Source: Candidatus Poribacteria bacterium (GTDB lineage Bacteria; Poribacteria; WGA-4E; WGA-3G). Taken from it: DNA of 64,000 nucleotides. Below are positions 39,820-64,000 of this stretch, piece after piece (within the stretch, counting starts at the first letter, position 1; every line of letters begins with the position of its first letter). The translations under genes and the position numbers were made by a program. The stretch covers positions 158,706 to 222,705 of the forward strand of contig OZ242325.1 in NCBI GenBank assembly GCA_965208245.1. The letters run 5' to 3'. The notes beneath the pieces were generated by a model that saw only the letters and a list, made by a program, of their open reading frames with translations, was not told where the DNA came from and ran no database searches.

Positions 39820-40452
39820 TTATTCTTCTGAATTATTTTTTGGTTGTGTTGGCGGGGGGTCTGTGAACTTTTCACCCCGTTCCTCCGCTTCTCTTCTCCT
39901 GCGGTTCCATTCTTCGATCTCGCGATACACTTCCGCTTTACCAACTGCTATGCCTTCTGCTATGCCTTCTGCTTTGCCTTCTGCTATGCCTTCTGCTATG
40001 CCTTCTGCTTTGCCTTCTGCTTTGCCTTCTGCTTTGCCTTCTGCTTTGCCTTCTGCTATGCCTTCTGCTTTGCCTTCTGCTATGCCTTCTGCTTTGCCTT
40101 CTGCTATGCCTTCTGCTATGCCTTCTGCTTTGCCTTCTGCTTTGGCAATTGCTTCGGCAGCTGCTATCCGCTTCTGACGTCTAGCATCTATAAAGTCTGA
40201 CAATAACATCATTAGATCTATGCCTCCGATTATCATTGCGACGAATGTCGCGTCAACAGGTATAAACGTTGATATGTCTTTTATGACATTTTGAACGGAT
40301 ACATGTCCATTCCAGCCTTGTGTCAATTCATGCTCCAATGCAATATATCCGTATATGAGCGCAAAAAGAGAAATGAGAAATAGTACAACGCCTGTTTTTC
40401 CGGTTCTCCAGAAGTCACGAACGGCTTGCCAGAATGTGCTGTATCTTTTCAA
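39820..40452 (-). CDS. 2-TM membrane protein with ~17 x (K/I)AEG tetrapeptide repeats and conserved ...EWNRRRREAEERGEKFTDPPP tail (family member 2)
   Basis: Two hydrophobic helices, a basic stretch (ARRQKR), a 12-nt repeat tract, then the tail shared with 12241-12600 and 49619-50143. Confidence 0.7.
   Translation of the reverse strand: MKRYSTFWQAVRDFWRTGKTGVVLFLISLFALIYGYIALEHELTQGWNGHVSVQNVIKDISTFIPVDATFVAMIIGGIDLMMLLSDFIDARRQKRIAAAEAIAKAEGKAEGIAEGIAEGKAEGIAEGKAEGIAEGKAEGKAEGKAEGKAEGIAEGIAEGKAEGIAEGIAVGKAEVYREIEEWNRRRREAEERGEKFTDPPPTQPKNNSEE
39945..40145 (-). repeat. In-frame 12-nt tandem repeat (gccttctgct[a/t]t), about 17 units
   Basis: Read directly. Encodes KAEG/IAEG units. Confidence 0.9.
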
Positions 40453-44605: not shown

Positions 44606-44791
44606 TATAGTAAAGTTAATGATTAATGAGACGTTTCACTGTTTACCAAGACACCTAGCGTAGGGGCGAGGTCACCTCGCCCGTTGTGGCGCGGTGTAGG
44701 GGCGAGGTCACCTCGCCCGTTGTGGCGCGGTGTAGGGGCGAGGTCACCTCGCCCGTTGTGGCGTGTCTCATTAATTCTATAGTTTACTATA
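44606..44791 (+). mobile_element. MITE/REP element with terminal inverted repeats (attaatgagac / gtctcattaat) and three tandem 36-bp palindromic cores
   Basis: Cores (gtaggggcgaggtcacctcgcccgttgtggcgcggt) lie at 44660-44695, 44696-44731 and 44732-~44764. The outer flanks (tatagtaaag...tttactata) are also inverted. Confidence 0.75.
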
Positions 44792-46934: not shown

Positions 46935-48719
46935 TCAGGTGCTTTCAATTGTGTTAATGACTGTTTCTACTCGTGAGATTAATGATGTTCGTTCATCCTC
47001 AGTAAGTGGCACAGGTGCAAATCTGTGATAATTGCATTTCGTAACGATATCTAATATTTCCTTCTGATCAGTCTCTGATATCCCTATCTGTTTACCTATA
47101 TCTTGAACGTTTTGCGGTGTCAATTGCTGTAAAACCGTTTCCTGTCGATCATCTGGATTCCGGTCAGATAGATATCGATGAATGATTCCTGTGAGTGACT
47201 CTACAAAGGAACTCGGGTCTATTGCCGTTTCATCAGTATCCAAGAATTGCAGGGATGAAATTGCTCGGACAGATGGGGCCATCGATACCTCGAACAGACT
47301 TTGGTCGTTTCCTGAATTTGTCCAAAAACGATAGATCTGAAAACGATAGAATAGATACCCACCTACTACTAAAACTAATATAGGAATGCTAAGAAGTAAC
47401 CATAGTACCCGATGTAAGGAATCAGATTCAGTACCAACCGTTCCATTCGGGTTCGGTGTTACAGTTAACGAAATTGGAGCTGTTTTTGATGTCTGATATA
47501 TCTCTTGGGTTGGGTTAAAGTAAGAGAATTCGATTCCGGGTAACTGCAATATGCCTGATTTTAGTGGAATTATCACGTATCGATAAATTCGTGTATTAGC
47601 ACTGTTACGCTGTGCAAGGATTGGTGTGTCTGTTCTAAAACCGCTCACCGGTGAAATCTTGGGTGCCGTTACCGTGTTGATATTTCCAGTTCCTGTACCA
47701 GTTCCTGTAATTGTGACAAACAGTGTCAGTGCCTTACGAACTTCAAACCTTCGTCTATCAACCGATGCACTTATATCATATTCACCGATAGCACCATCAA
47801 AATTAGCGGGTTTTCCTATTTCTGGTAAGGTTTGAACGTTGAGCACAACCGGCTTTGTTTTTAGTGTCTTAGGATTTCCTTTGATGGGTAGTTTTAACTG
47901 TACCGGTGGAATAAGGATTTTACCAATCTTTTGTGGATACAGACGTCTCACGTATTCATCTACATGATATGTTCTTCCATTTATCCGTGTCGTTGTTGAT
48001 GCATTCTCGGGCAGTTTTTCTACTACGAAACCTGAAAGTGTAGGAAGTACATAAGAGGGCGATTCGCTTGTAGGTAAAACTGTTGTATATAAGTAACGGA
48101 ATTGATATTCAATTGCCTGATTCAGATACGGTTTGCTGTTGCTGACGGTGGCTTCTACTTTGTGTATACCGTCTGTTGCGGTATCTATGTAACTATCAAC
48201 AGAACCTACTGTAATTATACCCGGATTTGCATTATAGGGAATACCTTGATATGAGAAACGCACGTTGGAAAGTGCAATTTGACCTGTTTTCTGCGGTATA
48301 AGTTCATAGACCCATGCCATAGATACTGTAAGTCTATTATCAACTAAATAGGGTGTCGTTTTCGAATGCAACGGAACGGCGAGAAAGTTCGGTAAAAAGT
48401 TGAATGACGGAGTCCCGATATGCTTCAGCAACGTATTACCTGATATTTTGAGCTCTAACGTTGCTCTTTCATTCAGTTGGATATGTCGTGGTGTAACAGA
48501 TGCTTCAACTTTGACATTATTGCTTTGGACATCTGTTGTGAAAACTATCAACAGCACCAGGCAGATCCAAATAGTCGGGAATCGGAGTTCCCTCTTACAA
48601 AGAAATCCGTTCTGTAGGAGCGATCTCCGAATCGCAACCTTTGCCAGCAAAATTAAAACGGATACTCTAATGGGAATATTAAAACTACCAATCTTTATCA
48701 CGTCTATATCCGCTATCAA
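46935..48719 (-). CDS. BatD-like (aerotolerance-operon type) membrane-anchored protein
   Basis: Has a signal/TM, a long beta-rich ectodomain, a late TM helix (VLWLLLSIPILVLVVGGYLFY) and a cytoplasmic tail. It follows a BatC-like TPR gene. The start codon is uncertain. Confidence 0.45.
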   Translation of the reverse strand: MIADIDVIKIGSFNIPIRVSVLILLAKVAIRRSLLQNGFLCKRELRFPTIWICLVLLIVFTTDVQSNNVKVEASVTPRHIQLNERATLELKISGNTLLKHIGTPSFNFLPNFLAVPLHSKTTPYLVDNRLTVSMAWVYELIPQKTGQIALSNVRFSYQGIPYNANPGIITVGSVDSYIDTATDGIHKVEATVSNSKPYLNQAIEYQFRYLYTTVLPTSESPSYVLPTLSGFVVEKLPENASTTTRINGRTYHVDEYVRRLYPQKIGKILIPPVQLKLPIKGNPKTLKTKPVVLNVQTLPEIGKPANFDGAIGEYDISASVDRRRFEVRKALTLFVTITGTGTGTGNINTVTAPKISPVSGFRTDTPILAQRNSANTRIYRYVIIPLKSGILQLPGIEFSYFNPTQEIYQTSKTAPISLTVTPNPNGTVGTESDSLHRVLWLLLSIPILVLVVGGYLFYRFQIYRFWTNSGNDQSLFEVSMAPSVRAISSLQFLDTDETAIDPSSFVESLTGIIHRYLSDRNPDDRQETVLQQLTPQNVQDIGKQIGISETDQKEILDIVTKCNYHRFAPVPLTEDERTSLISRVETVINTIEST

Positions 48720-49308
48720 GGTTCTGTTTCAGTATCATTTGTCGACGTTGGTCTTCATTCTTAGTCAACTGTTCAAGGAGTTGGTCTGTTTCCGCTTTGG
48801 AAAGGTTGGTCGGATTACTTTCTGCTTCTTCCGCCTTCTCTCCACTCGCTTTCTGCTGTTGTGTCATGTGTAGTTGTTGTTTAAGAAACTGTCGTGCTAA
48901 TGTCAGGTTATGTTTTGCATCAGAATCATGAGGGTTTAAGTGCAAGGCGTTCTCATAAGACTTTATCGCTGCAGTATAATCTCTCAATTGAAATTGTGCA
49001 TTACCCAAATTATAATGGACATCTGCTGAATTGTGAATGTCTCCCTTTAGGAGAGATGTTTGGAAAGCATCGGATGCTTTTCTAAAGTTGCCTATTTTAT
49101 AGTATGCAGTCCCGAGATTATGATAGGTAATTGGGTTATCAGGTTTGTCGGATACAGCAGTTTGATAAGCATTTACTGCTGTATCATATTCTTGTTTCCA
49201 ATATGCATCGTTTCCCGCTCTGATAGATTGTTTCCAACTTCCGATCCATCCAACAAGGCACATAAACAAGAGTATAGAGCATAAGCAAAGCAATCTCCTA
49301 TTGAGCAT
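48685..49308 (-). CDS. TPR-repeat protein (BatC-like)
   Basis: Has a signal anchor, 3-4 TPR units (AYYKIGNFRKASDAF..., YNLGNAQFQLRDYTAAIKSYENAL) and an acidic C-terminal tail. Confidence 0.55.
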   Translation of the reverse strand: MLNRRLLCLCSILLFMCLVGWIGSWKQSIRAGNDAYWKQEYDTAVNAYQTAVSDKPDNPITYHNLGTAYYKIGNFRKASDAFQTSLLKGDIHNSADVHYNLGNAQFQLRDYTAAIKSYENALHLNPHDSDAKHNLTLARQFLKQQLHMTQQQKASGEKAEEAESNPTNLSKAETDQLLEQLTKNEDQRRQMILKQNLDSGYRRDKDW

Positions 49309-49618: not shown

Positions 49619-50143
49619 TTAGCAAATATTTGTAGCGTCCACTGGAGGCGGTTCACTGAAATCTTCACCTTTCGCTTCCGCTGCAAGGCGTCGGTTATTC
49701 CAATTTATCCATAAATGCCGTTCTTCAGCTATACCTTCAGCTATACCTTCAGCTATACCTTCAACTATACCTTCAGCTTTTGCTCGCTGAATTTGGCGTT
49801 GAAGGCGTTCTTTATAGATTTGTGTAAGAAACATAATGAAATCAACTCCTTGAAATAAAATGAGAGTGAATCCTGTCGCTACGGCAATAAAAGCTGCAAG
49901 TTGCATAACAATAACCTGTACTGTTTCCATTATAGGTTGTGCTTTCGCTGCTTCATAACGAATCAAAAAGATTGTATAAACTATTACCTCGATTGAAAAT
50001 ACTTTTAGCGCAACATCAACCCAAATTCTACGTATACTGAGGATGCCAACTCTATCGTCTTTTTTATCGTCTTTTTGCATTAACTTTAGATATCTTTTGT
50101 AATTTAATTGTAGCACATTCATTGAGAAGATGCAACACATCAA
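49619..50143 (-). CDS. 2-TM membrane protein, family member 3, with 5 x (K/I)(A/V)EG units and ...WNNRRLAAEAKGEDFSEPPP tail
   Basis: Same layout as 39820-40452. Repeat tract at about 49725-49790. The start is uncertain (several Met). Confidence 0.6.
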   Translation of the reverse strand: MMCCIFSMNVLQLNYKRYLKLMQKDDKKDDRVGILSIRRIWVDVALKVFSIEVIVYTIFLIRYEAAKAQPIMETVQVIVMQLAAFIAVATGFTLILFQGVDFIMFLTQIYKERLQRQIQRAKAEGIVEGIAEGIAEGIAEERHLWINWNNRRLAAEAKGEDFSEPPPVDATNIC

Positions 50144-50360: not shown

Positions 50361-53300
50361 TTATTGTGCAGCGTTTTTGATGTCGCCCCACGACGTTGTA
50401 AGTTTTCCTTTCGCTGATATTAAGCCTTTCAACTTGGTTACAGCGAGTTGATTGTGCTGACCTGAGAATGAGATGTCTTCGATCTGATAGTAGTAAATAG
50501 CACCGGGCTTTGCTGTTGTATCAATCCATTTATAGGTGGTACGTTCTGCCGTTGTGCCTTTACCTTGTATCATCTGTTCGTTGACTTGTGTGAATTCACC
50601 GTCGCGGGTTTCGCTACGGAGGATATTGAATCCAGCGTTGTCAAGTTCGGATTCCGTTGTCCATTGGATAGTAACTTTTCCGTTTTCCGATGTTGGACGG
50701 AAGAAGGATAACTCAACGGGTAGTGCTGTGCCGCTGGTATGTAAGGGGGTGCCGAAATCATCACTGCTTCCATACCAGATTTCTTTTGCGGTTGCTAATG
50801 CGGTATCAACAGCATGAACCCATGCAGCCTTCATATTTTTTTCTGCACGTATAAGACTTCCAGATGTACTCATAGGTATCACAGAACCTGTCATATCCCC
50901 TTCCATAGTACGATCAGGGACACCTTTACGCGCCATGCCAGCTTTTCCGAAAACAGTGCCTTGCACACCTCGTGTGCCGCCATCCATGAGACGAATCAAA
51001 GATGTGCGTTTATCATCTGTTGTTAGGGCAGTGGGCCAACGCCAACTGTATGGATCGTCGAGCTCGATACCTTCACGGAGATCAGCTTCTTTCCCATCAA
51101 GGTTACCGATCTCATCAGATACATTTCCAGCACCATCAACAATCTTGATATAGAAACCGCCTGCAGCATTTAACATGTCCTGCCTGCTATTTTTCATATC
51201 CAAAGCTGCTCTGGCACTGTTCGTTCCCCATACACTTGCAACTCTGTGACTTGGGAAGTGACCCGTACCTGAGCTATGCCGTCCAGAGCGAGAAGCGATC
51301 AACACAGTCTGGTTAGGTGGAATGAACTCGATACCCTCAAAATCTTTCAAGTTAATTGTGGCATTGAGTTTACGGTTACTATCTAACCATGAACCGGAGT
51401 TATGGTTTTCAATAATCATACGCCATCCAGCATCTTTGGCACTTTTATCTGCATCACTTCCATCTACTGTAAGGTTAATACCTTTCGTTCTGGATGTGTT
51501 GTGAAGTTCAATCCATTGTGGGTAGCGTCCATTGTCGCTTGTGAGCATCAATTCACTAATGATCAAGCCACCATCATCAATATCTCCAGTTTTACCTTTC
51601 ACGACATCGTTATGGTATCCTGGCGTTCCGGCACCCATGACATCACGGTCATAACCGAGACCGCCTGAGTAGCCGACAATGGCTCCGCCACCTTTACGCC
51701 ATCCGTGTAATGTGCCATTACGTGCCCAGACTTCACCGCTCTTAAATGCATGGGCAGGATCCAGAGATGCATTGTTGTTATTGGAATCACCTGCATTATG
51801 TGCTCGGTAATTATTGCCTGTATGCCCGTTGATGGGCCATGCAAGCGTATTCCAGTAACTGCCGTTTTCAGGTTCCGTTATTTTAGCTGTAACACCAAGC
51901 GTGTTCTTTGTAACTCTTGCAGAACCTGCAACATCGTGCATATGTGTTCGGCTAGTTTTGAATTTATTATCAGCATGGCTTCGCAATATAAGGAAACCAC
52001 CTGCATCCAGTGATGCCGGAATATTCAGAGCTGTGTTATGACTCGCTTTAATATTCAGATATTTATGCTGCCCGGCACCAAGTGTTTGGTTTGCTCTGGC
52101 TTCTCTAATATTCTGTCCTGCAGCAAGACCGGTATCTTCAGGGTCACTATTGACAATTAACAACACTTCACCAGCAGGAATCTTTATATCCCAATTGAAA
52201 TGGATAATGTTCTGTTCATCAGCTTGATCATCCGTACTCGTATTAGTAACCGTTGCGCCGCCAGTGTGATTAAGTCTCCAGCCCTTAAGATTCACCTCAC
52301 CAGTGCTCACATTACGAAATTCAATCCAATCTAAACTATCATCACTACTATGATTAAAGACTTCGTTGATAATAACTTTGTCTTTAGGTGGTGTGTAAGC
52401 AGTAGGACCCGTACGTACTGATGGAAGTCCCTCACGTTCATTTGCTGTACCGGGCGTTCCCTTAAAACCGGGGAAATAGAAACGGTCAGAGGCTTTCCAA
52501 TGTGCAGCATTTGCACCATCGCCATCCTGTTTACTACGATAAATGGAAACAAACGCAGGATCCGCACCGATAATTGCTGGTGTATCACCAGTACTTCGAG
52601 TTGCTGTACCACTACTACCTTTTATAGCTGGATTCCATACATTTTGATGTCCAGCAATATTAGTGATCCTATCAACAACACCAGTTACTTTAGGAGGTGC
52701 TGGGAATGTATCATCAGTAAATATAAATGTAGGATTGGGAACAGGGGTAGTCTTACGATTATAGACTTCAATCCACTGCTGATTTGTATAACCATCTTGT
52801 CCAACACGTGAATTATCAACACCCCACATGATTTCGTTGATAATAACATCAAAATTCTCTGCAGCAGCAGTAGTAACTGCGTCAGCACCCGTGCCTGTAG
52901 TCGTAGTAATAACTAAGTCAATCGTTCCACCACCGACATTGAAGAATTCTTCAAGGTCTGGCATAGCTACATTTGAATTACCGGTAGTTGTTGTAGGGTC
53001 AATTGCAGCTAAATTAGCCTCACCTAGAGTGGATGGTAACACTGGACGAGCTGTTTCAACAGGAAGTGTAGCATCACCAGATCTCAAATAAACACGATAC
53101 GCGTAACCAGCAAGATGATTGGTTGCAAGGACAAGTGAAGTTGCACCTGCCAAATCAGTACCAAGACCTGAATCAAGACCAGTGCTATAACCTTTTAGGG
53201 TTAACCCTGCTGGAACAGTAACGTCCGAATCTGCATCTTCAAGTGTGAGTGTAACGGTTTTACCACTACTAGTAATTTTAGCAGTCGTAGCACCAGCAGC

Positions 53301-53594
53301 ACCACTAACAAAACTTGCTTTCAGTACATCACGATCACCGCCATCGTCATCAGTCGCACCGATCTGTCCATCAGTAGCTGTAAAATCAGAAAGGACTGGT
53401 ACAGGATCCGGATCCTCGGAATATGTAAACGTTATAACGACTTTCCCTTTAACCACAGGAGGTCCTGCAGCATAAGTGGTTGACTCAATATACGCAGTCA
53501 CTGTCACCTGTGCCATTGCGGTTGGCGCGACGACAAGCGCAGCAACGAGTAATATAGAAAAAATAGAAAATGTCAATCTATTTGACAAGTACAT
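50361..53594 (-). CDS. Large secreted protein with three lamin-tail-domain (LTD)-like modules and a C-terminal LPVELSFF... beta-sandwich domain
   Basis: Signal peptide ...VVAPTAMA. Has LTD-type motifs VIINEIMWG...QWIEVYN, VIINEVFNH...DWIEFRN and LIISELMLT...QWIELHN. C-terminal LPVELSFFRPTSENGKVTIQWTTESELDNAGFNILRSE. Confidence 0.7.
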   Translation of the reverse strand: MYLSNRLTFSIFSILLVAALVVAPTAMAQVTVTAYIESTTYAAGPPVVKGKVVITFTYSEDPDPVPVLSDFTATDGQIGATDDDGGDRDVLKASFVSGAAGATTAKITSSGKTVTLTLEDADSDVTVPAGLTLKGYSTGLDSGLGTDLAGATSLVLATNHLAGYAYRVYLRSGDATLPVETARPVLPSTLGEANLAAIDPTTTTGNSNVAMPDLEEFFNVGGGTIDLVITTTTGTGADAVTTAAAENFDVIINEIMWGVDNSRVGQDGYTNQQWIEVYNRKTTPVPNPTFIFTDDTFPAPPKVTGVVDRITNIAGHQNVWNPAIKGSSGTATRSTGDTPAIIGADPAFVSIYRSKQDGDGANAAHWKASDRFYFPGFKGTPGTANEREGLPSVRTGPTAYTPPKDKVIINEVFNHSSDDSLDWIEFRNVSTGEVNLKGWRLNHTGGATVTNTSTDDQADEQNIIHFNWDIKIPAGEVLLIVNSDPEDTGLAAGQNIREARANQTLGAGQHKYLNIKASHNTALNIPASLDAGGFLILRSHADNKFKTSRTHMHDVAGSARVTKNTLGVTAKITEPENGSYWNTLAWPINGHTGNNYRAHNAGDSNNNNASLDPAHAFKSGEVWARNGTLHGWRKGGGAIVGYSGGLGYDRDVMGAGTPGYHNDVVKGKTGDIDDGGLIISELMLTSDNGRYPQWIELHNTSRTKGINLTVDGSDADKSAKDAGWRMIIENHNSGSWLDSNRKLNATINLKDFEGIEFIPPNQTVLIASRSGRHSSGTGHFPSHRVASVWGTNSARAALDMKNSRQDMLNAAGGFYIKIVDGAGNVSDEIGNLDGKEADLREGIELDDPYSWRWPTALTTDDKRTSLIRLMDGGTRGVQGTVFGKAGMARKGVPDRTMEGDMTGSVIPMSTSGSLIRAEKNMKAAWVHAVDTALATAKEIWYGSSDDFGTPLHTSGTALPVELSFFRPTSENGKVTIQWTTESELDNAGFNILRSETRDGEFTQVNEQMIQGKGTTAERTTYKWIDTTAKPGAIYYYQIEDISFSGQHNQLAVTKLKGLISAKGKLTTSWGDIKNAAQ

Positions 53595-54157
53595 TGTAAT
53601 CTCCTTAAAAAAATTAAGTTCAAAAAAATCATGTTAAGGATTCAGGGAATGAAATCCTGTTAACCTATTCTCAAATATCAACTATTGATATCTGTTTACG
53701 TCAAAATGTTCCTAAAACTTTCATATTCTGTGGTGTTCAATAATCATCTTGACACACCACATTTGCCAAAAAATATTATTTAGTTAATTATACGTCAATA
53801 ACTTAAATTAAGCAAATTAATTTTCATATTAACTTATCATCAAACAGTAAATAAGTCCAAAAATCTATAAAATTTGTAAGATGTATCGGGCACTTCTGTT
53901 CATCTACACTTCTGTTCATCTATTTGTGCTAAATTGCCATTTTTGTAACATAATAGATAGTGCGCCATACATAGTTATGTAAAATATAATAACGTATAAA
54001 ATTAAATTAAGCAACAACTTTTTTCATTTTTTGCCTTAATTTATGAAAACATTCTATAGTATTATACACCCTAATATTTGGGATGTCAAGGGAAAAATAC
54101 ACCGCTTTCAAGGAATAGAAGATTGGAAGAGGGGAAGGTTCTATCTACGGTTTTGGG

Positions 54158-55135
54158 TTAGCTGTGTGTTTGTAAACGTTGCAATTGTTCTCGGAGTCGT
54201 GCGACTTCAGTTTCAGCGTTCTCAGCACGGGCTGCTTCCTGTTCAGCAAGTGTTTCAGCGTTCTCAGCACGGGCTGCTTCCTGTTCAGCAAGTGTTTCAG
54301 CGTTCTCAGCACGGGCTGCTTCCTGTTCAGCACGGGATGCCTCCTGTTCAGCACGGGATGCCTCCTGTTCAGCAAGTGTTTCAGCACTCTCAGCACGGGC
54401 TGCTTCCTGTTCAGCACGGGCTGCCTCTTGTTCAGCACGGGCTGCCTCTTGTTCAGCAAGTGTTTCAGCACTCTCAGCACGGGCTGCTTCCTGTTCAGCG
54501 CGTGTTGCTTCCTGTTCAGCACGGGCTTCGGCTGCTTCGGTTGGGGTCTGCAGCCATGCACCCGCAACAGGATCATAGAAACCTAAACCTTCATCATCCA
54601 CATGGAAATCTAAACTGAGAACATCAGAATGTAGACCCCCATCTGCATGCTCAGATATCGGAACATAAACACCACCAACTAATGTCCAACCCATCAGTTG
54701 AGATGCCAAAAATAAACCTTCCGCATCATATAAAAAGTAATCTTGGATACCTAAAGAGGTATAGAGGTCCATTTTTTTCCCTAAATCTTCAGCATAAGTG
54801 GTTTTGCTACTGAACTCCATCACAAAATCAGGCAGTTTACCTTCCACCCAAACAAGATACGTATTCCGCCTTTTTTTATCTAATCCGAAAGAGACTAACA
54901 CATCCGGGGCAACGACTCGGTGCGGATCACCCTCCACATAATACATCAGTATATCACCAGAAACATAAACATCCGGTTGTTGTGTGTAATGTGCCTTAAG
55001 TGTATCTATTGTGCAATTGAGTATATCTCTGTGCAGATCGCTCGCAGCCATGGGTTTACCATCCGTATCAGGGTAATATATCGGTATGTCTGTTGGAGCA
55101 GAAGATATTTTCTGCTTATCTGTATAGGTTGTCAT
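54158..55135 (-). CDS. Uma2 (DUF820) family PD-(D/E)XK endonuclease, copy 1, 325 aa, 14 tail heptads
   Basis: Has VVAPDVLVSFG, LPDFVMEFSSKTT and KMDLYTSLGIQDYFLYD. RBS is AAGGAG. The tail ends NAETEVARLREQLQRLQTHS. Confidence 0.88.
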   Translation of the reverse strand: MTTYTDKQKISSAPTDIPIYYPDTDGKPMAASDLHRDILNCTIDTLKAHYTQQPDVYVSGDILMYYVEGDPHRVVAPDVLVSFGLDKKRRNTYLVWVEGKLPDFVMEFSSKTTYAEDLGKKMDLYTSLGIQDYFLYDAEGLFLASQLMGWTLVGGVYVPISEHADGGLHSDVLSLDFHVDDEGLGFYDPVAGAWLQTPTEAAEARAEQEATRAEQEAARAESAETLAEQEAARAEQEAARAEQEAARAESAETLAEQEASRAEQEASRAEQEAARAENAETLAEQEAARAENAETLAEQEAARAENAETEVARLREQLQRLQTHS

Positions 55136-55205
55136 CGGTGTTTCTCCTTTTAGTCAAATACATGAAAGTATTTTAATACTTGAACCGTGGAGACTGCTTT
55201 TGCTA

Positions 55206-55235
55206 ATTATAACTGAGAATCGATAAAAATAACAA
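55206..55235 (-). promoter_or_regulatory. Candidate sigma70-type promoter of an array unit (TTGTTA-N18-TATAAT on the minus strand), repeated in every full-length spacer
   Basis: Read directly, ~70 nt upstream of the ATG. Not tested. In the two short spacers the -35 part is deleted. Confidence 0.3.
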
Positions 55236-55493
55236 GCACTTTAAAGTCCTATGCTAAAAATATGATTTTATCAGTCCGCAGGTCGGGTAGAGGGTAGCGT
55301 CATTAAAATATTAACTGGCGACACGATCAAACTTCTGTCGGGGGTCGCTACACTCAAACCAAACTACAAAGTCTACTATTAGCCCTACACAAAAACTGAC
55401 AATCTCTTAAAACTGAAGAACCCTGCCGACCTACGAAGAAAACTTGACAAGGTATTAGCTTACAAAAACTTTACACACCCTTATGGGTTTGGG

Positions 55494-56387
55494 TTAGCTA
55501 TGTGTTTGTAAACGTTGCAATTGTTCTCGGAGTCGTGCGACTTCAGTTTCAGCCGCCTCAGCACGGGATGCTTCCTGTTCAGCACGGGCTGCTTCTTGTT
55601 CAGCAAGTGTTTCAGCACTCTCAGCACGGGCTGCCTCCTGTTCAGCACGGGCTGCCTCCTGTTCAGCACGGGCTGCTTCCTGTTCAGCACGGGCTGCCTC
55701 TTGTTCAGCAAGTGTTTCAGCGTTCTCAGCACGGGCTGCTTCCTGTTCAGCGCGTGTTGCTTCCTGTTCAGCACGGGCTTCGGCTGCTTCGGTTGGGGTC
55801 TGCAGCCATGCACCCGCAACAGGATCATAGAAACCTAAACCTTCATCATCCACATGGAAATCTAAACTGAGAACATCAGAATGTAGACCCCCATCTGCAT
55901 GCTCAGATATCGGAACATAAACACCACCAACTAATGTCCAACCCATCAGTTGAGATGCCAAAAATAAACCTTCCGCATCATATAAAAAGTAATCTTGGAT
56001 ACCTAAAGAGGTATAGAGGTCCATTTTTTTCCCTAAATCTTCAGCATAAGTGGTTTTGCTACTGAACTCCATCACAAAGTCAGGCAGTTTACCTTCCACC
56101 CAAACAAGATACGTATTCCGCCTTTTTTTATCTAATCCGAAAGAGACTAACACATCCGGGGCAACGACTCGGCGCGGATCACCCTCCACATAATACATCA
56201 GTATATCACCAGAAACATAAACATCCGGTTGTTGTGCGTAATGTGCCTTAAGTGTATCTATTGTGCAATTGAGTATATCTCTGTGCAGATCGCTTGCAGC
56301 CATGGGTTTACCATCCGTATCAGGGTAATATATCGGTATGTCTGTTGGAGCAGAAGATATTTTCTGCTTATCTGTATAGGTTGTCAT
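55494..56387 (-). CDS. Uma2 family endonuclease, copy 2, 297 aa, 10 tail heptads
   Basis: Same core as copy 1. Confidence 0.88.
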   Translation of the reverse strand: MTTYTDKQKISSAPTDIPIYYPDTDGKPMAASDLHRDILNCTIDTLKAHYAQQPDVYVSGDILMYYVEGDPRRVVAPDVLVSFGLDKKRRNTYLVWVEGKLPDFVMEFSSKTTYAEDLGKKMDLYTSLGIQDYFLYDAEGLFLASQLMGWTLVGGVYVPISEHADGGLHSDVLSLDFHVDDEGLGFYDPVAGAWLQTPTEAAEARAEQEATRAEQEAARAENAETLAEQEAARAEQEAARAEQEAARAEQEAARAESAETLAEQEAARAEQEASRAEAAETEVARLREQLQRLQTHS

Positions 56388-56745
56388 CGGTATTTCTCCT
56401 TTTAGTCAAATACATGAAAGTATTTTAATACTTGAACCGTGGAGACTGCTTTTGCTAATTATAACTGAGAATCGATAAAAATAACAAGCACTTTAAAGTC
56501 CTATGCTAAAAATATGATTTTATCAGTCCGTAGGTCGGGTAGAGGGTAGCGTCATTAAAATATTAACTAGCGACACGATCAAACTTCTGTCGGGGGTCGC
56601 TTCGCTCAAACCAAACTACAAAGTCCACTATTAGCCCTACACAAAAACTGACAATCTCTTAAAACTGAAGAACCCTGCCGACCTACGAAGAAAACTTGAC
56701 AAGGTATTAGCTTACAAAAACTTTACACACCCTTATGGGTTTGGG

Positions 56746-57618
56746 TTAGCTATGTGTTTGTAAACGTTGCAATTGTTCTCGGAGTCGTGCGACTTCAGTT
56801 TCAGCCGCCTCAGCACGGGATGCTTCCTGTTCGGCACGGGCTGCTTCTTGTTCAGCAAGTGTTTCAGCACTCTCAGCACGGGCTGCTTCCTGTTCAGCAC
56901 GGGCTGCCTCTTGTTCAGCACGGGCTGCCTCTTGTTCAGCAAGTGTTTCAGCACTCTCAGCACGTGTTGCTTCCTGTTTTGCAAGTGTTTCAGCGTTCTC
57001 AGCGCGTGCTTCGGCTGCTTCGGTTGGGGTCTGCAGCCATGCACCCGCAACAGGATCATAGAAACCTAAACCTTCATCATCCACATGGAAATCTAAACTG
57101 AGAACATCAGAATGTAGACCCCCATCTGCATGCTCAGATATCGGAACATAAACACCACCAACTAATGTCCAACCCATCAGTTGAGATGCCAAAAATAAAC
57201 CTTCCGCATCATATAAAAAGTAATCTTGGATACCTAAAGAGGTATAGAGGTCCATTTTTTTCCCTAAATCTTCAGCATAAGTGGTTTTGCTACTGAACTC
57301 CATCACAAAATCAGGCAGTTTACCTTCCACCCAAACAAGATACGTATTCCGCCTTTTTTTATCTAATCCGAAAGAGACTAACACATCCGGGGCAACGACT
57401 CGGCGCGGATCACCCTCCACATAATACATCAGTATATCACCAGAAACATAAACATCCGGTTGTTGTGTGTAATGTGCCTTAAGTGTATCTATTGTGCAAT
57501 TGAGTATATCTCTGTGCAGATCGCTTGCAGCCATGGGTTTACCATCCGTATCAGGGTAATATATCGGTATGTCTGTTGGAGCAGAAGATATTTTCTGCTT
57601 ATCTGTATAGGTTGTCAT
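56746..57618 (-). CDS. Uma2 family endonuclease, copy 3, 290 aa, 9 tail heptads
   Basis: Same core as copy 1. Confidence 0.88.
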   Translation of the reverse strand: MTTYTDKQKISSAPTDIPIYYPDTDGKPMAASDLHRDILNCTIDTLKAHYTQQPDVYVSGDILMYYVEGDPRRVVAPDVLVSFGLDKKRRNTYLVWVEGKLPDFVMEFSSKTTYAEDLGKKMDLYTSLGIQDYFLYDAEGLFLASQLMGWTLVGGVYVPISEHADGGLHSDVLSLDFHVDDEGLGFYDPVAGAWLQTPTEAAEARAENAETLAKQEATRAESAETLAEQEAARAEQEAARAEQEAARAESAETLAEQEAARAEQEASRAEAAETEVARLREQLQRLQTHS

Positions 57619-57975
57619 CGGTGTTTCTCCTTTTAGTCAAATACATGAAAGTATTTTAATACTTGAACCGTGGAGACTGCTTTTGCTAATTATAACTGAG
57701 AATCGATAAAAATAACAAGCACTTTAAAGTCCTATGCTAAAAATATGATTTTATCAGTCCGCAGGTCGGGTAGAGGGTAGCGTCATTAAAATATTAACTA
57801 GCGACACGATCAAACTTCTGTCGGGGGTCGCTACACTCAAACCAAACTACAAAGTCCACTATTAGCCCTACACAAAAACTGACAATCTCTTAAAACTGAA
57901 GAACCCTGCCGAACTACGAAGAAAACTTGACAAGGTATTAGTTACAAAAACTTTACACACCCTTATGGGTTTGGG

Positions 57976-58974
57976 TTAGCTATGTGTTTGTAAACGTTGC
58001 AATTGTTCTCGGAGTCGTGCGACTTCAGTTTCAGCCGCCTCAGCACGGGATGCTTCCTGTTCGGCACGGGCTGCTTCTTGTTCAGCAAGTGTTTCAGCGT
58101 TCTCAGCACGGGCTGCCTCCTGTTCAGCACGGGCTGCTTCTTGTTCAGCAAGTGTTTCAGCGTTCTCAGCACGGGATGCTTCCTGTTCAGCAAGTGTTTC
58201 AGCGTTCTCAGCACGGGCTGCCTCTTGTTCAGCACGGGCTGCCTCTTGTTCAGCACGGGCTGCCTCTTGTTCAGCACGGGCTGCCTCTTGTTCAGCAAGT
58301 GTTTCAGCGTTCTCAGCACGGGATGCTTCCTGTTTTGCAAGTGTTTCAGCGTTCTCAGCACGTGCTTCGGCTGCTTCGGTTGGGGTCTGCAGCCATGCAC
58401 CCGCAACAGGATCATAGAAACCTAAACCTTCATCATCCACATGGAAATCTAAACTGAGAACATCAGAATGTAAACCACCATCTGCATGCTCAGATACAGG
58501 AACATAAACACCATCAACTAATGTCCAACCCATCAGTTGAGATGCCAAAAATAAACCTTCCGCATCATATAAAAAGTAATCTTGGATACCTAAAGAAGCA
58601 TAGAGGTCCATTTTTTTCCCTAAATCTTCAGCATAAGTGGTTTTGCTACTGAACTCCATCACAAAATCAGGCAGTTTACCTTCCACCCAAACAAGATACG
58701 TATTCCGCCTTTTTTTATCTAATCCGAAAGAGACTAACACATCCGGGGCAACGACTCGGTGCGGGACACCTTTCACGTAATACATCAGTATATCACCAGA
58801 AACATAAACATCCGGTCGTTGTGCGTAATGTGCCTTAAGTGTTTCTAGTGTGCAATTGAGTATATCTCTGTGCAGGTCGCTCGCAGCCATGGGTTTACCA
58901 TCCGTATCAGGGTAATATATCGGTATGTCTGTTGGAACAGAAGATATTTTCTGCTTAGCTGTATAGGTTGTCAT
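57976..58974 (-). CDS. Uma2 family endonuclease, copy 4, 332 aa, 15 tail heptads
   Basis: Same core, variant haplotype (LETL, AQR, KGVPH, ASLG, DGVYVPVS). Confidence 0.88.
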   Translation of the reverse strand: MTTYTAKQKISSVPTDIPIYYPDTDGKPMAASDLHRDILNCTLETLKAHYAQRPDVYVSGDILMYYVKGVPHRVVAPDVLVSFGLDKKRRNTYLVWVEGKLPDFVMEFSSKTTYAEDLGKKMDLYASLGIQDYFLYDAEGLFLASQLMGWTLVDGVYVPVSEHADGGLHSDVLSLDFHVDDEGLGFYDPVAGAWLQTPTEAAEARAENAETLAKQEASRAENAETLAEQEAARAEQEAARAEQEAARAEQEAARAENAETLAEQEASRAENAETLAEQEAARAEQEAARAENAETLAEQEAARAEQEASRAEAAETEVARLREQLQRLQTHS

Positions 58975-59332
58975 CGGTGTTTCTCCTTTTAGTCAAATAC
59001 ATGAAAGTATTTTAATACTTGAACCGTGGAGACTGCTTTTGCTAATTATAACTGAGAATCGATAAAAATAACAAGCACTTTAAAGTCCTATGCTAAAAAT
59101 ATGATTTTATCAGTCCGTAGGTCCGGTAGAGGGTAGCGTCATTAAAATATTAACTGGCGACACGATCAAACTTCTGTCGGGGGTCGCTACACTCAAACCA
59201 AACTACAAAGTCCACTATTAATCCTACACAAAAACTGACAATCTCTTAAAACTGAAGAACCCTGCCGAACTACGAAGAAAACTTGACAAGGTATTAGCTT
59301 ACAAAAACTTTACACACCCTTATGGGTTTGGG

Positions 59333-60247
59333 TTAGCTATGTGTTTGTAAACGTTGCAATTGTTCTCGGAGTCGTGCGACTTCAGTTTCAGCCGCCTCAG
59401 CACGGGATGCTTCCTGTTCAGCACGGGCTGCTTCTTGTTCAGCAAGTGTTTCAGCACTCTCAGCACGGGATGCTTCCTGTTCAGCAAGTGTTTCAGCGTT
59501 CTCAGCACGGGCTGCCTCTTGTTCAGCACGGGCTGCCTCTTGTTCAGCACGGGCTGCTTCTTGTTCAGCAAGTGTTTCAGCGTTCTCAGCACGTGTTGCT
59601 TCCTGTTTTGCAAGTGTTTCAGCGTTCTCAGCGCGTGCTTCGGCTGCTTCGGTTGGGGTCTGCAGCCATGCACCCGCAACAGGATCATAGAAACCTAAAC
59701 CTTCATCATCCACATGGAAATCTAAACTGAGAACATCAGAATGTAGACCCCCATCTGCATGCTCAGATATCGGAACATAAACACCACCAACTAATGTCCA
59801 ACCCATCAGTTGAGATGCCAAAAATAAACCTTCCGCATCATATAAAAAGTAATCTTGGATACCTAAAGAGGTATAGAGGTCCATTTTTTTCCCTAAATCT
59901 TCAGCATAAGTGGTTTTGCTACTGAACTCCATCACAAAATCAGGCAGTTTACCTTCCACCCAAACAAGATACGTATTCCGCCTTTTTTTATCTAATCCGA
60001 AAGAGACTAACACATCCGGGGCAACGACTCGGTGCGGATCACCCTCCACATAATACATCAGTATATCACCAGAAACATAAACATCCGGTCGTTGTGTGTA
60101 ATGTGCCTTAAGTGTATCTATTGTGCAATTGAGTATATCTCTGTGCAGATCGCTTGCAGCCATGGGTTTACCATCCGTATCAGGGTAATATATCGGTATG
60201 TCTGTTGGAGCAGAAGATATTTTCTGCTTATCTGTATAGGTTGTCAT
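59333..60247 (-). CDS. Uma2 family endonuclease, copy 5, 304 aa, 11 tail heptads
   Basis: Same core as copy 1. Confidence 0.88.
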   Translation of the reverse strand: MTTYTDKQKISSAPTDIPIYYPDTDGKPMAASDLHRDILNCTIDTLKAHYTQRPDVYVSGDILMYYVEGDPHRVVAPDVLVSFGLDKKRRNTYLVWVEGKLPDFVMEFSSKTTYAEDLGKKMDLYTSLGIQDYFLYDAEGLFLASQLMGWTLVGGVYVPISEHADGGLHSDVLSLDFHVDDEGLGFYDPVAGAWLQTPTEAAEARAENAETLAKQEATRAENAETLAEQEAARAEQEAARAEQEAARAENAETLAEQEASRAESAETLAEQEAARAEQEASRAEAAETEVARLREQLQRLQTHS

Positions 60248-60502
60248 CGGTGTTTCTCCTTTTAGTCAAATACATGAAAGTATTCTAATACTTGAACCGT
60301 GGAGACTGCTTTTGCTAATTATACTGGCGACACGATCAAACTTCTGTCGGGGGTCGCTACACTCAAACCAAACTACAAAGTCCGCTATTAGCCCTACACA
60401 AAAACTGACAATCTCTTAAAACTGAAGAACCCTGCCGAACTACGAAGAAAACTTGACAAGGTATTAGCTTACAAAAACTTTACACATCCTTATGGGTTTG
60501 GG

Positions 60503-61438
60503 TTAGCTATGTGTTTGTAAACGTTGCAATTGTTCTCGGAGTCGTGCGACTTCAGTTTCAGCCGCCTCAGCACGGGATGCCTCCTGTTCAGCACGGGCTG
60601 CTTCTTGTTCAGCAAGTGTTTCAGCACTCTCAGCACGGGCTGCCTCTTGTTCAGCACGGGCTGCCTCTTGTTCAGCAAGTGTTTCAGCACTCTCAGCACG
60701 GGCTGCCTCTTGTTCAGCACGGGCTGCCTCTTGTTCAGCAAGTGTTTCAGCGTTCTCAGCGCGTGTTGCTTCCTGTTCAGCGCGTGTTGCTTCCTGTTCA
60801 GCGCGTGTTGCTTCCTGTTCAGCGCGTGCTTCGGCTGCTTCGGTTGGGGTCTGCAGCCATGCACCCGCAACAGGATCATAGAAACCTAAACCTTCATCAT
60901 CCACATGGAAATCTAAACTGAGAACATCAGAATGTAAACCACCATCTGCATGCTCAGATACAGGAACATAAACACCATCAACTAATGTCCAACCCATCAG
61001 TTGAGATGCCAAAAATAAACCTTCCGCATCATATAAAAAGTAATCTTGGATACCTAAAGAAGCATAGAGGTCCATTTTTTTCCCTAAATCTTCAGCATAA
61101 GTGGTTTTGCTACTGAACTCCATCACAAAATCAGGCAGTTTACCTTCCACCCAAACAAGATACGTATTCCGCCTTTTTTTATCTAATCCGAAAGAGACTA
61201 ACACATCCGGGGCAACGACTCGGTGCGGATCACCCTCCACATAATACATCAGTATATCACCAGAAACATAAACATCCGGTCGTTGTGTGTAATGTGCCTT
61301 AAGTGTTTCTAGTGTGCAATTGAGTATATCTCTGTGCAGATCGCTTGCAGCCATAGGTTTACCATCCGTATCAGGGTAATATATCGGTATGTCTGTTGGA
61401 GCAGAAGATATTTTCTGCTTATCTGTATAGGTTGTCAT
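60503..61438 (-). CDS. Uma2 family endonuclease, copy 6, 311 aa, 12 tail heptads
   Basis: Same core as copy 1. Confidence 0.88.
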   Translation of the reverse strand: MTTYTDKQKISSAPTDIPIYYPDTDGKPMAASDLHRDILNCTLETLKAHYTQRPDVYVSGDILMYYVEGDPHRVVAPDVLVSFGLDKKRRNTYLVWVEGKLPDFVMEFSSKTTYAEDLGKKMDLYASLGIQDYFLYDAEGLFLASQLMGWTLVDGVYVPVSEHADGGLHSDVLSLDFHVDDEGLGFYDPVAGAWLQTPTEAAEARAEQEATRAEQEATRAEQEATRAENAETLAEQEAARAEQEAARAESAETLAEQEAARAEQEAARAESAETLAEQEAARAEQEASRAEAAETEVARLREQLQRLQTHS

Positions 61439-61692
61439 CGGTGTTTCTCCTTTTAGTCAAATACATGAAAGTATTTTAATACTTGAACCGTGGAGACTGC
61501 TTTTGCTAATTATACTGGCGACACGATCAAACTTCTGTCGGGGGTCGCTACACTCAAACCAAACTACAAAGTCCACTATTAGCCCTACACAAAAACTGAC
61601 AATCTCTTAAAACTGAAGAACCCTGCCGACCTACGAAGAAAACTTGACAAGGTATTAGCTTACAAAAACTTTACACATCTTATGGTTTTGGG

Positions 61693-62649
61693 TTAGCTAT
61701 GTGTTTGTAAACGTTGCAATTGTTCTCGGAGTCGTGCGACTTCAGTTTCAGCCGCCTCAGCACGGGATGCCTCCTGTTCAGCACGGGCTGCTTCTTGTTC
61801 AGCAAGTGTTTCAGCACTCTCAGCACGGGCTGCCTCTTGTTCAGCACGGGCTGCCTCTTGTTCAGCAAGTGTTTCAGCACTCTCAGCACGGGCTGCCTCT
61901 TGTTCAGCACGGGCTGCCTCTTGTTCAGCACGGGCTGCCTCTTGTTCAGCAAGTGTTTCAGCGTTCTCAGCACGTGTTGCTTCCTGTTCAGCGCGTGTTG
62001 CTTCCTGTTTTGCAAGTGTTTCAGCGTTCTCAGCACGTGCTTCGGCTGCTTCGGTTGGGGTCTGCAGCCATGCACCCGCAACAGGATCATAGAAACCTAA
62101 ACCTTCATCATCCACATGGAAATCTAAACTGAGAACATCAGAATGTAAACCACCATCTGCATGCTCAGATACAGGAACATAAACACCATCAACTAATGTC
62201 CAACCCATCAGTTGAGATGCCAAAAATAAACCTTCCGCATCATATAAAAAGTAATCTTGGATACCTAAAGAGGTATAGAGGTCCATTTTTTTCCCTAAAT
62301 CTTCAGCATAAGTGGTTTTGCTACTGAACTCCATCACAAAATCAGGCAGTTTACCTTCCACCCAAACAAGATACGTATTCCGCCTTTTTTTATCTAATCC
62401 GAAAGAGACTAACACATCCGGGGCAACGACTCGGTGCGGATCACCCTCCACATAATACATCAGTATATCACCAGAAACATAAACATCCGGTCGTTGTGTG
62501 TAATGTGCCTTAAGTGTATCTATTGTGCAATTGAGTATATCTCTGTGCAGATCGCTTGCAGCCATGGGTTTACCATCCGTATCAGGGTAATATATCGGTA
62601 TGTCTGTTGGAGCAGAAGATATTTTCTGCTTATCTGTATAGGTTGTCAT
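61693..62649 (-). CDS. Uma2 family endonuclease, copy 7, 318 aa, 13 tail heptads
   Basis: Same core as copy 1. Confidence 0.88.
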   Translation of the reverse strand: MTTYTDKQKISSAPTDIPIYYPDTDGKPMAASDLHRDILNCTIDTLKAHYTQRPDVYVSGDILMYYVEGDPHRVVAPDVLVSFGLDKKRRNTYLVWVEGKLPDFVMEFSSKTTYAEDLGKKMDLYTSLGIQDYFLYDAEGLFLASQLMGWTLVDGVYVPVSEHADGGLHSDVLSLDFHVDDEGLGFYDPVAGAWLQTPTEAAEARAENAETLAKQEATRAEQEATRAENAETLAEQEAARAEQEAARAEQEAARAESAETLAEQEAARAEQEAARAESAETLAEQEAARAEQEASRAEAAETEVARLREQLQRLQTHS

Positions 62650-63007
62650 CGGTGTTTCTCCTTTTAGTCAAATACATGAAAGTATTTTAATACTTGAACC
62701 GTGGAGACTGCTTTTGCTAATTATAACTGAGAATCGATAAAAATAACAAGCACTTTAAAGTCCTATGCTAAAAATATGATTTTATCAGTCCGCAGGTCGG
62801 GTAGAGGGTAGCGTCATTAAAATATTAACTGGCGACACGATCAAACTTCTGTCGGGGGTCGCTACACTCAAACCAAACTACAAAGTCCACTATTAGCCCT
62901 ACACAAAAACTGACAATCTCTTAAAACTGAAGAACCCTGCCGAACTACGAAGAAAACTTGACAAGGTATTAGCTTACAAAAACTTTACACATCCTTATGG
63001 TTTTGGG

Positions 63008-64000
63008 TTAGCTATGTGTTTGTAAACGTTGCAATTGTTCTCGGAGTCGTGCGACTTCAGTTTCAGCCGCCTCAGCACGGGATGCTTCCTGTTCGGCACG
63101 GGCTGCTTCTTGTTCAGCAAGTGTTTCAGCACTCTCAGCACGGGATGCCTCCTGTTCAGCACGGGATGCCTCTTGTTCAGCAAGTGTTTCAGCACTCTCA
63201 GCACGGGATGCCTCCTGTTCAGCAAGTGTTTCAGCGTTCTCAGCACGGGCTGCCTCTTGTTCAGCACGGGCTGCCTCTTGTTCAGCACGGGCTGCCTCTT
63301 GTTCAGCACGGGCTGCCTCTTGTTCAGCAAGTGTTTCAGCGTTCTCAGCACGGGATGCTTCCTGTTTTGCAAGTGTTTCAGCGTTCTCAGCGCGTGCTTC
63401 GGCTGCTTCGGTTGGGGTCTGCAGCCATGCACCCGCAACAGGATCATAGAAACCTAAACCTTCATCATCCACATGGAAATCTAAACTGAGAACATCAGAA
63501 TGTAAACCACCATCTGCATGCTCAGATACAGGAACATAAACACCATCAACTAATGTCCAACCCATCAGTTGAGATGCCAAAAATAAACCTTCCGCATCAT
63601 ATAAAAAGTAATCTTGGATACCTAAAGAAGCATAGAGGTCCATTTTTTTCCCTAAATCTTCAGCATAAGTGGTTTTGCTACTGAACTCCATCACAAAATC
63701 AGGCAGTTTACCTTCCACCCAAACAAGATACGTATTCCGCCTTTTTTTATCTAATCCGAAAGAGACTAACACATCCGGGGCAACGACTCGGTGCGGGACA
63801 CCTTTCACGTAATACATCAGTATATCACCAGAAACATAAACATCCGGTCGTTGTGCGTAATGTGCCTTAAGTGTTTCTAGTGTACAATTGAGTATATCTC
63901 TGTGCAGATCGCTCGCAGCCATGGGTTTACCATCCGTATCAGGGTAATATATCGGTATGTCTGTTGGAACAGAAAATATTTTCTGCTTATCTGTATAGGT
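63008..64000 (-). CDS. Uma2 family endonuclease, copy 8, 5' end cut by the window (about 2 codons missing), 15 tail heptads
   Basis: The reverse complement of the last bases reads TYTDKQKIFSVPTDIPIYYPDTDGKPMAAS, so the CDS continues to the edge. The ORF track shows only the internal-Met part. Confidence 0.85.
   Translation of the reverse strand, partial: TYTDKQKIFSVPTDIPIYYPDTDGKPMAASDLHRDILNCTLETLKAHYAQRPDVYVSGDILMYYVKGVPHRVVAPDVLVSFGLDKKRRNTYLVWVEGKLPDFVMEFSSKTTYAEDLGKKMDLYASLGIQDYFLYDAEGLFLASQLMGWTLVDGVYVPVSEHADGGLHSDVLSLDFHVDDEGLGFYDPVAGAWLQTPTEAAEARAENAETLAKQEASRAENAETLAEQEAARAEQEAARAEQEAARAEQEAARAENAETLAEQEASRAESAETLAEQEASRAEQEASRAESAETLAEQEAARAEQEASRAEAAETEVARLREQLQRLQTHS

Follow-up and report, generated by a model that had tools for sequence, protein, structure and literature searches.

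Proteins of the Uma2 family have been predicted to be endonucleases of the PD-(D/E)XK type (PMC3424549) and have been proposed as likely solo toxins that occur in 'cassettes of paralogous genes' (PMC2701414), with an expansion of the family in Thermus (PMC1274311). Within the restriction enzymes of Type IC, the specificity subunit HsdS carries TAEL repeats in a helical spacer whose number sets the spacing of DNA sites, one extra repeat of four amino acids (aa) shifting the gap in the DNA target from N6 to N7 between EcoR124I and EcoR124II (PMC3874165). Both systems bear on a 64,000-nucleotide (nt) stretch of a Candidatus Poribacteria genome (assembly GCA_965208245.1, contig OZ242325.1, positions 158,706 to 222,705; hereafter the window), in which positions 54158-64000 hold eight tandem, head-to-tail minus-strand genes for Uma2-family PD-(D/E)XK nucleases with a tail of 7-residue units. 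We consider it on balance probable that this region belongs to a Uma2 cassette that has undergone hyper-expansion and whose stalk, encoded by a minisatellite, diversifies by slippage and recombination, the window presumably covering one end of the cassette in the chromosome of a sponge symbiont. The ladder of 9-15 heptads found in the window is a sample of a dense and redundant 0-19 series rather than a one-of-each design.

The products of copies 1-8 are 325, 297, 290, 332, 304, 311, 318, and 332 aa long, and a 21-nt period was detected in every array gene by Tandem Repeats Finder. Splitting each product at the end of the nuclease domain (...PTEAAEARAE) and at the C-terminal motif (A/N)AETEVARLREQLQRLQTHS, which in copy 1 begins with N instead of A, leaves 14, 10, 9, 15, 11, 12, 13, and 15 heptads, each exactly 7 aa. 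The genes are:

54158-55135, minus strand: copy 1, 325 aa, 14 heptads, minisatellite at 54221-54514; last gene in the direction of transcription; Pfam PF05685
55494-56387, minus strand: copy 2, 297 aa, 10 heptads, minisatellite at 55557-55766
56746-57618, minus strand: copy 3, 290 aa, 9 heptads, minisatellite at 56809-56997; structure modelled with AlphaFold2 (AF2)
57976-58974, minus strand: copy 4, 332 aa, 15 heptads, minisatellite at 58039-58353; sister of copy 8; structure modelled with AF2
59333-60247, minus strand: copy 5, 304 aa, 11 heptads, minisatellite at 59396-59626
60503-61438, minus strand: copy 6, 311 aa, 12 heptads, minisatellite at 60566-60817; nuclease domain a mosaic of the array's two haplotypes
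61693-62649, minus strand: copy 7, 318 aa, 13 heptads, minisatellite at 61756-62028; identical to the database protein P0121
63008-64000, minus strand: copy 8, 332 aa when full, 15 heptads, minisatellite at 63071-63385

A first-pass annotation of the window had reported the same unit counts and the seven product lengths of 290, 297, 304, 311, 318, 325, and 332 aa, all of which our recount reproduced, and the copies do differ almost solely by whole, in-frame heptads in all eight genes. Its statement that only 15 heptads recurs is likewise correct for the window, but the two copies concerned do not differ in unit order: their tails are distinguished by just four single-residue substitutions (N/S, A/S) and their nuclease domains by 5 of 615 nt. 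Copies 4 and 8 are sister copies, and the window thus contains seven lineages with seven lengths. Copy 8 is truncated by the window end, being two codons short of the full 332-aa product known as database protein P0013, and the window ends without an array boundary coming into view. As the array runs past this point, the terms 'complete' and 'each once' hold for the window only and cannot be extended to the locus or the genome. Open reading frames (ORFs) of 100-190 aa on the opposite strand or in other frames also span every minisatellite, for example 54043-54618 (plus strand); on inspection these look like stop-free repeat frames and are probably not genes.

Beyond the window, a protein search with the nuclease domain returned the window products and many close paralogues, all on one Poribacteria contig of 4,252,156 bp, and all close relatives came from Candidatus Poribacteria, which are sponge symbionts. 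Search matches, expanded 90% clusters, and reading of the sequences together yielded at least 41 distinct paralogues on this contig, the 8 window genes and 33 outside, with 0-19 heptads and lengths of 227 to 360 aa. All 41 ORFs are intact and in frame, and the nuclease domains are 85-100% identical in 39 of them, the remaining two forming a diverged pair at ~78%. Counted from 0 to 19 heptads, the rungs hold 1, 1, 1, 1, 1, 2, 1, 2, 1, 2, 3, 2, 2, 2, 5, 5, 4, 2, 2, and 1 copies; no rung is empty and many are redundant (five copies each at 14 and 15), and each of the seven product lengths of the window recurs elsewhere in the genome. With at least 41 paralogues spread over only 20 lengths, any eight neighbours are likely to show many different lengths, and the appearance of each rung once in the window results from the placement of its borders. 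The complete ladder from 9 to 15 heptads described by the first-pass annotation therefore stands within the window and falls as a non-redundant design. Two paralogues on the same contig, outside the window, have unusual ends: P0021 (227 aa) has zero heptads, its nuclease domain being fused straight to the terminal zipper, and P0125 (333 aa) has a changed C-terminal end (...LQTPQLTQNHKGV), as might be expected at another array boundary.

The composition of the tails suggests how the series arose. The 99 units of the window comprise 18 distinct 21-mers, and the tails are mosaics of common 21-mer blocks, with R-C-C-D-R occurring in copies 1 and 3, B-K-A-C-C-C-E-A in copies 4 and 8, and C-E-R-C-E-R-F-L in copies 6 and 7; two haplotypes are mixed in mosaic fashion in the nuclease domains of the array. 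How long a tail is depends hardly at all on how far the remainder of the gene has diverged, as P0009, P0010, and P0128 have identical nuclease domains and 15, 18, and 8 heptads. P0014 and P0123, one residue apart in the nuclease domain, have 15 and 5 heptads, and the mean heptad difference is 4.2 to the nearest relative versus 5.7 for random pairs. Tail length shifts fast and in large steps relative to the remainder of the gene, or else gene conversion homogenises that remainder. A 21-nt minisatellite encoding the helix would generate in-frame length variants by gain and loss of units, to which recombination or gene conversion among near-identical neighbours may add further variants, outpacing the divergence of the nuclease domain. 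A duplication model with strictly one-unit steps, gap-free by construction, was rejected as insufficient, never spanning 19 with 41 copies while sisters here differ by up to 10; a phase-variable contingency locus was rejected as well, the unit being 21 nt and 8 of 8 window genes and 41 of 41 paralogues being in frame. The array nonetheless resembles the contingency-type minisatellites of bacterial surface proteins in having a repeat that is a multiple of 3 nt, slippage or recombination variants, and sizes that differ between assemblies. It differs from them in that its product is a predicted cytoplasmic nuclease, and in that the variants coexist as many paralogues in a single genome instead of being alleles at one locus.

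Comparable arrays occur in other Poribacteria. The array at L041:6501-10822 (CAXXUA010000004.1) has five Uma2 copies with 2, 4, 5, 6, and 8 heptads, strictly ascending along the direction of transcription, and arrays of 6, 5, and 8 (L052) and of 12 and 8 heptads (L011) were also found, as were four copies of 268, 254, 261, and 282 aa at L108:4331-8038 (ERZ21862620 ctg169407l). The last of these lies between the gene for ribosomal protein L9 and dnaB, which indicates that the insertion sites of such arrays are of a housekeeping type and vary among Poribacteria. In these smaller arrays every length is different, but gaps are present (2, 4, 5, 6, 8; 6, 5, 8; 12, 8), and within the cluster of L052-type arrays the lengths differ by whole heptads between assemblies (281/295, 281/302, 274/302, and 295/302 aa). 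By the first-pass annotation's own refuting criterion, redundant or random lengths in arrays of related genomes, a complete and essentially non-redundant designed ladder fails. Singleton orthologues, in contrast, have degenerate repeats and hold one length across assemblies (340 aa in 13 of 15, 248 aa in 12 of 15), which ties the instability to repeat quality. A well-preserved minisatellite undergoing slippage and unequal recombination fits the length data, and hybrid copies from unequal crossover could explain a gradient in length along arrays. Window copies 5, 6, and 7, with 11, 12, and 13 heptads, form a run like that of the ascending L041 array. A search of metagenome contigs found no relative above 60% identity.

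The enzymatic part of these proteins is assigned by sequence and by predicted fold to Uma2 (PF05685 / COG4636 / DUF820), with a restriction-endonuclease-like fold. Pfam PF05685 (Uma2, 'putative restriction endonuclease') matches residues 31-140 with 47.7 bits against a cut-off of 27 and is carried by all 120 listed database relatives, and a profile built from 87 homologues matches the solved Uma2-like protein 6OKH. AF2 modelled the 290-aa copy with a mean local confidence (pLDDT) of 80.9, with residues 1-30 disordered and an alpha/beta domain at ~33-188 whose core mostly exceeds a pLDDT of 80. The best Foldseek matches in the PDB were 9Y1L, 6OKH, 3OT2 (DUF820), and 1WDJ (TT1808), with a probability of 1.00 and target-normalised TM-scores of 0.50-0.71. 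Across the 87 homologues, no variation occurs at P77-D78, E98, K100, E107, and S109, and conservation reaches at least 90% at D103 and K111, residues that include the candidate acidic and Lys positions of the PD-(D/E)XK type. The protein plan comprises a disordered N-terminus, the Uma2 domain, a long acidic Ala/Glu/Arg heptad helix, and an invariant two-heptad Leu zipper (EVARLREQLQRLQ). With the known Uma2/DUF820/COG4636 proteins (1WDJ, 3OT2, 6OKH, 9Y1L) the array products share the Pfam score, the fold, the conserved acidic and Lys residues, and the arrangement in tandem cassettes (PMC2701414); they differ in that one genome carries at least 41 near-identical copies with a helix of 0-19 heptads, and in that the host belongs to the Poribacteria and not to the cyanobacteria or Thermus.

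Following the proposal made for the family, the cellular role is most likely a defence- or toxin-like cleavage of nucleic acids, nuclease activity being a prediction for the family as a whole (PMC3424549). NCBIfam gave no match for the nuclease, and the PADLOC hidden Markov models for the candidate defence gene PDC-S03 matched it weakly (E = 1.7e-7 to 2e-4, 19-29 bits), PDC-S03 itself having candidate status only; the PADLOC paper gives no description of PDC systems, and none was found for PDC-S03. A phage origin was set aside, as a search of viral contigs returned no relatives and PHROGs gave weak matches only, to families of unknown function. A type II toxin-antitoxin pair was rejected because the spacers between the genes have no convincing antitoxin ORF, Rfam match, or strongly structured RNA; the absence of a partner in the spacers is consistent with the description of Uma2 as 'solo' (PMC2701414). 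In the literature searched, no paper ties Uma2 to Poribacteria, and neither a heptad series nor a minisatellite-encoded helix of 0-19 heptads is mentioned for the family.

The tail of the 290-aa copy was modelled by AF2 as a single uninterrupted helix at 198-289 (92 residues, pLDDT 89-98), and the 332-aa copy has the same domain with a helix at 198-330 (133 residues), which suggests that the number of heptads sets the length of the helix. An alpha-helix rises by 1.5 Å per residue, giving a step of ~10.5 Å for each heptad of seven residues. In composition the tail is ~36% Ala, 29% Glu, and 10% Arg with a net charge of -10 to -18, and each unit holds E-to-R (i+3) and R-to-E (i+4) pairs at an E:R ratio of 2:1. 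Seven-residue periodicity is found throughout. No tail among the 41 paralogues contains a partial heptad, and the stretch separating nuclease domain and zipper varies by multiples of seven residues across 297 Poribacteria homologues, of which 248 share one phase while 44 follow a phase specific to a subfamily; the ladder of heptads thus characterises the family and extends beyond this array. A hydrophobic a/d core does not extend along the helix. The canonical pattern is confined to the last two heptads, where the invariant zipper presents V-L-L-L; in the register of this zipper, as read from the sequence, QEAARAE units place Ala at a and Glu at d, and the alternative Ala/Ala register has Glu at both e and g.

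Stepwise growth of an Ala/Glu-rich stalk, as the first-pass annotation had envisaged, agrees with the AF2 models, whereas its label as a coiled coil is doubtful given the Ala/Glu core and acidic tail. Instead of a canonical homodimeric coiled coil, the residue pattern suggests a single helix that is stiff and acidic, or one that needs a basic partner. As a stiff spacer, the helix would probably hold the nuclease head and the terminal zipper apart, by ~10.5 Å per unit and 0-200 Å overall. Single alpha-helix spacers of the ER/K and (EAAAK)n types are similar in being rich in Ala, Glu, and Arg, in their i+3/i+4 charge pairs, and in the isolated straight helix predicted by AF2; the array tail differs from them in its 2:1 ratio of E to R, its strongly acidic character, its interspersed xAETLAE units, and its terminal Leu zipper.

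Whether the rungs are occupied more evenly than chance predicts was assessed with two statistics. For the window (at least seven distinct, gap-free values among 8 copies) the probability is 0.025 for independent uniform draws on 7 values, the most favourable model, at most 0.014 for a discretised normal, at most 0.007 for a Yule tree with stepwise mutation, at most 0.03 for duplication-coupled slippage, and 0.0009 for eight draws from the 41 genome-wide values. For the genome (gap-free over 20 rungs with 41 copies) it is 0.044 under a uniform, 0.006 under a smoothed empirical, and 0.002 under a normal distribution. All of these p-values are post hoc, the pattern having been noticed first. A fast bounded random walk approaches the uniform distribution, the model under which evenness is least surprising. 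The evenness leans towards over-dispersion, marginally and post hoc, and is suggestive rather than decisive; the earlier assertion that the ladder does not look like random slippage noise cannot be established.

The anatomy, the family assignment, the predicted single helix, the purifying selection, the redundancy across the genome, and the heptad quantisation within the family are shown by the data; we infer both the slippage and recombination mechanism and a mostly unselected occupancy of the rungs. Several observations weigh against this interpretation. Both in the window and genome-wide, lengths are spread more evenly than expected from simple neutral models (~0.001-0.04), and only 1 of 42 within-array pairs has the same length in the arrays read from DNA. 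The other 33 paralogues are known from their protein records and may continue this array or lie elsewhere. The nuclease-domain ratio of non-synonymous to synonymous substitution (dN/dS) between window copies is ~0.1-0.35, and the 69 QEAxRAE units show synonymous variation at five third-codon positions but a change of amino acid at residue 4 (A/S/T) alone. Substitution patterns of this kind indicate purifying selection on nuclease domain and tail peptide alike, and selection maintains copies whose main difference is tail length. The strongest case for a function tied to length lies in the maintenance of the copies and in a tail peptide that evidently matters. Such a function could take the form of a selected set of lengths, an explanation that we regard as a serious rival, though a less probable one: a rigid stalk and a shared zipper would tether the heads to one another, as homo- or hetero-oligomers, or to a common anchor, at graded distances of 0-20 nm or graded offsets, with diversifying or balancing selection keeping the lengths and minisatellite slippage supplying the variation. 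Consistent with it are the rarity of gap-free coverage under neutral models, the purifying selection on every copy and on the tail peptide, the invariant zipper with its heptad-quantised distance in the 297 homologues, the smaller arrays with all-different lengths and the ordered 2, 4, 5, 6, 8 of L041, and the straight helix that in AF2 scales with unit number. However, the rungs are redundant genome-wide, lengths vary between related assemblies and other arrays are gapped, the p-values are post hoc and marginal, and a 21-nt repeat unit trivially yields heptad quantisation; the array is also without a partner gene, and the AF2 models are of single chains.

A precedent for selected lengths is provided by the TAEL repeats of EcoR124I/II, in which the repeat number of a helical spacer sets the spacing of DNA sites (PMC3874165), and the likeness lies in an in-frame short repeat whose number in a helical spacer changes a distance stepwise. 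HsdS differs in having two target-recognition domains per chain, an antiparallel coiled coil, and a 4-aa repeat present 2-3 times in one gene, whereas the array proteins have one nuclease head per chain in AF2, 7-aa units in 0-19 copies, and dozens of paralogues, an effect on specificity being shown for HsdS only. A Type I HsdS ruler would have repeat-bearing helices between two target-recognition domains, and HsdM and HsdR as partners; this architecture is absent here, with one globular domain per chain, no other genes in the array, and no restriction-modification genes among the Pfam-scanned neighbours. Somewhat less probable is the stronger proposal that the whole 0-19 series is a selected repertoire of molecular rulers, with identical heads on a common zipper in 1-nm steps over 0-20 nm. 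Expansion for dosage, or as an addictive element resembling a solo toxin, would make tail length functionally irrelevant and leave mainly gene conversion to keep the copies intact. The proposal that Uma2 is a likely solo toxin in paralogous cassettes (PMC2701414), the homogenised spacers and nuclease domains, and the lack of partner genes would agree with this; we nevertheless consider it unlikely, as the tail peptide is conserved despite abundant synonymous change, so that the tail matters, and there are no mobile-element genes in the Pfam-scanned flank and no viral relatives. Least probable, and in our judgement very improbable, is an artefact of assembly or population structure, in which strain variants were collapsed or concatenated or a repeat was mis-assembled. 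The source is a metagenome-assembled genome and repeats of 1.2-1.4 kb at 96-99% identity are hard to assemble, but the copies are all intact ORFs that differ by whole units only, the 21-mer variants give each tail a 'barcode' of its own, similar arrays exist in independent assemblies of other Poribacteria, and the 4.25-Mb contig suggests long reads. A cassette diversifying by slippage and recombination is the interpretation that we retain as most likely.

The spacers between the genes and the DNA flanking the array are:

55136-55493, minus strand: spacer between copies 1 and 2
56388-56745, minus strand: spacer between copies 2 and 3
57619-57975, minus strand: spacer between copies 3 and 4
58975-59332, minus strand: spacer between copies 4 and 5
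60248-60502, minus strand: spacer between copies 5 and 6
61439-61692, minus strand: spacer between copies 6 and 7
62650-63007, minus strand: spacer between copies 7 and 8
53595-54157, no strand assigned: unique flank between the array and a lamin-tail-domain gene (50361-53594, minus strand)

Five of the seven spacers measure 357-358 nt and two 254-255 nt, and they are near-identical to each other, differing by scattered single bases only apart from one 103-nt deletion, which is the same in the two adjacent short spacers (60248-60502 and 61439-61692). Each terminates in AAAGGAGAAA(C/T)ACCG ahead of the ATG, AAAGGAGAAA being Shine-Dalgarno-like. A promoter-like site, TTGTTA-18-TATAAT, was found in all three spacers scanned, and the same sequence aligns in the remaining two full-length spacers; the deletion takes out the TTGTTA -35-like box that the other five spacers retain, and copies 5 and 6 may consequently lack a promoter of their own. 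A spacer contained no convincing small ORF, Rfam match, terminator, or structured RNA (folding z = -1.55), and the array holds eight nuclease genes only, with no partner gene inside it.

Similarity to the repeat unit ceases ~10 nt beyond copy 1's stop codon, which marks this end of the array. Pfam identifies genes for lamin-tail-domain, TPR, BatD, and WD40 proteins in the flank, and there are no mobile-element genes among the Pfam-scanned flank genes and no restriction-modification genes among the Pfam-scanned neighbours. Eukaryote-like repeat proteins are abundant nearby, with a 962-aa WD40 protein (40550-43438), a TPR protein (48685-49308), and the lamin-tail-domain protein of 1077 aa (50361-53594), a richness that is typical of sponge symbionts. 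Other repeats in the window include a perfect 36-nt tandem repeat of 2.9 copies at 44660-44763 (GTAGGGGCGAGGTCACCTCGCCCGTTGTGGCGCGGT), which has a short palindrome inside and lies between DnaJ-domain and DAO oxidoreductase genes, and 12-nt in-frame repeats at 40000-40144 in ORF 39820-40452 (Yae1_N-like) and at 49723-49778 in ORF 49619-50143 (encoding GIAEGIAEGIAEG). In another genome, a Uma2 paralogue at L069:2837-3797 has a GIAQGIAKG... tail in place of heptads, resembling the ORFs with 12-nt repeats of the window.

Uma2/DUF820 is among the largest uncharacterised nuclease families and has been massively expanded in cyanobacteria, in Thermus, and here in sponge symbionts. The genome described here is a natural length series, with at least 41 intact, near-identical heads on stalks of 0-19 heptads, and lets a possible effect of stalk length on oligomer state, cut spacing, or target choice be tested. 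If length does not matter, the array would be a clear case of a bacterial in-frame minisatellite diversifying paralogues faster than point mutation, and also a warning that a tidy pattern in a fixed window can stem from the way the window was cut. If length does matter, it would be a new bacterial way to diversify an enzyme and a second repeat-number 'ruler' after the TAEL repeats of HsdS. Were the series a selected repertoire of rulers, the cell would own graded cleavage geometries or pairing registers, for example in defence against varied invading DNA, and the diversification of protein length would be a means of generating diversity in a bacterial nuclease family.

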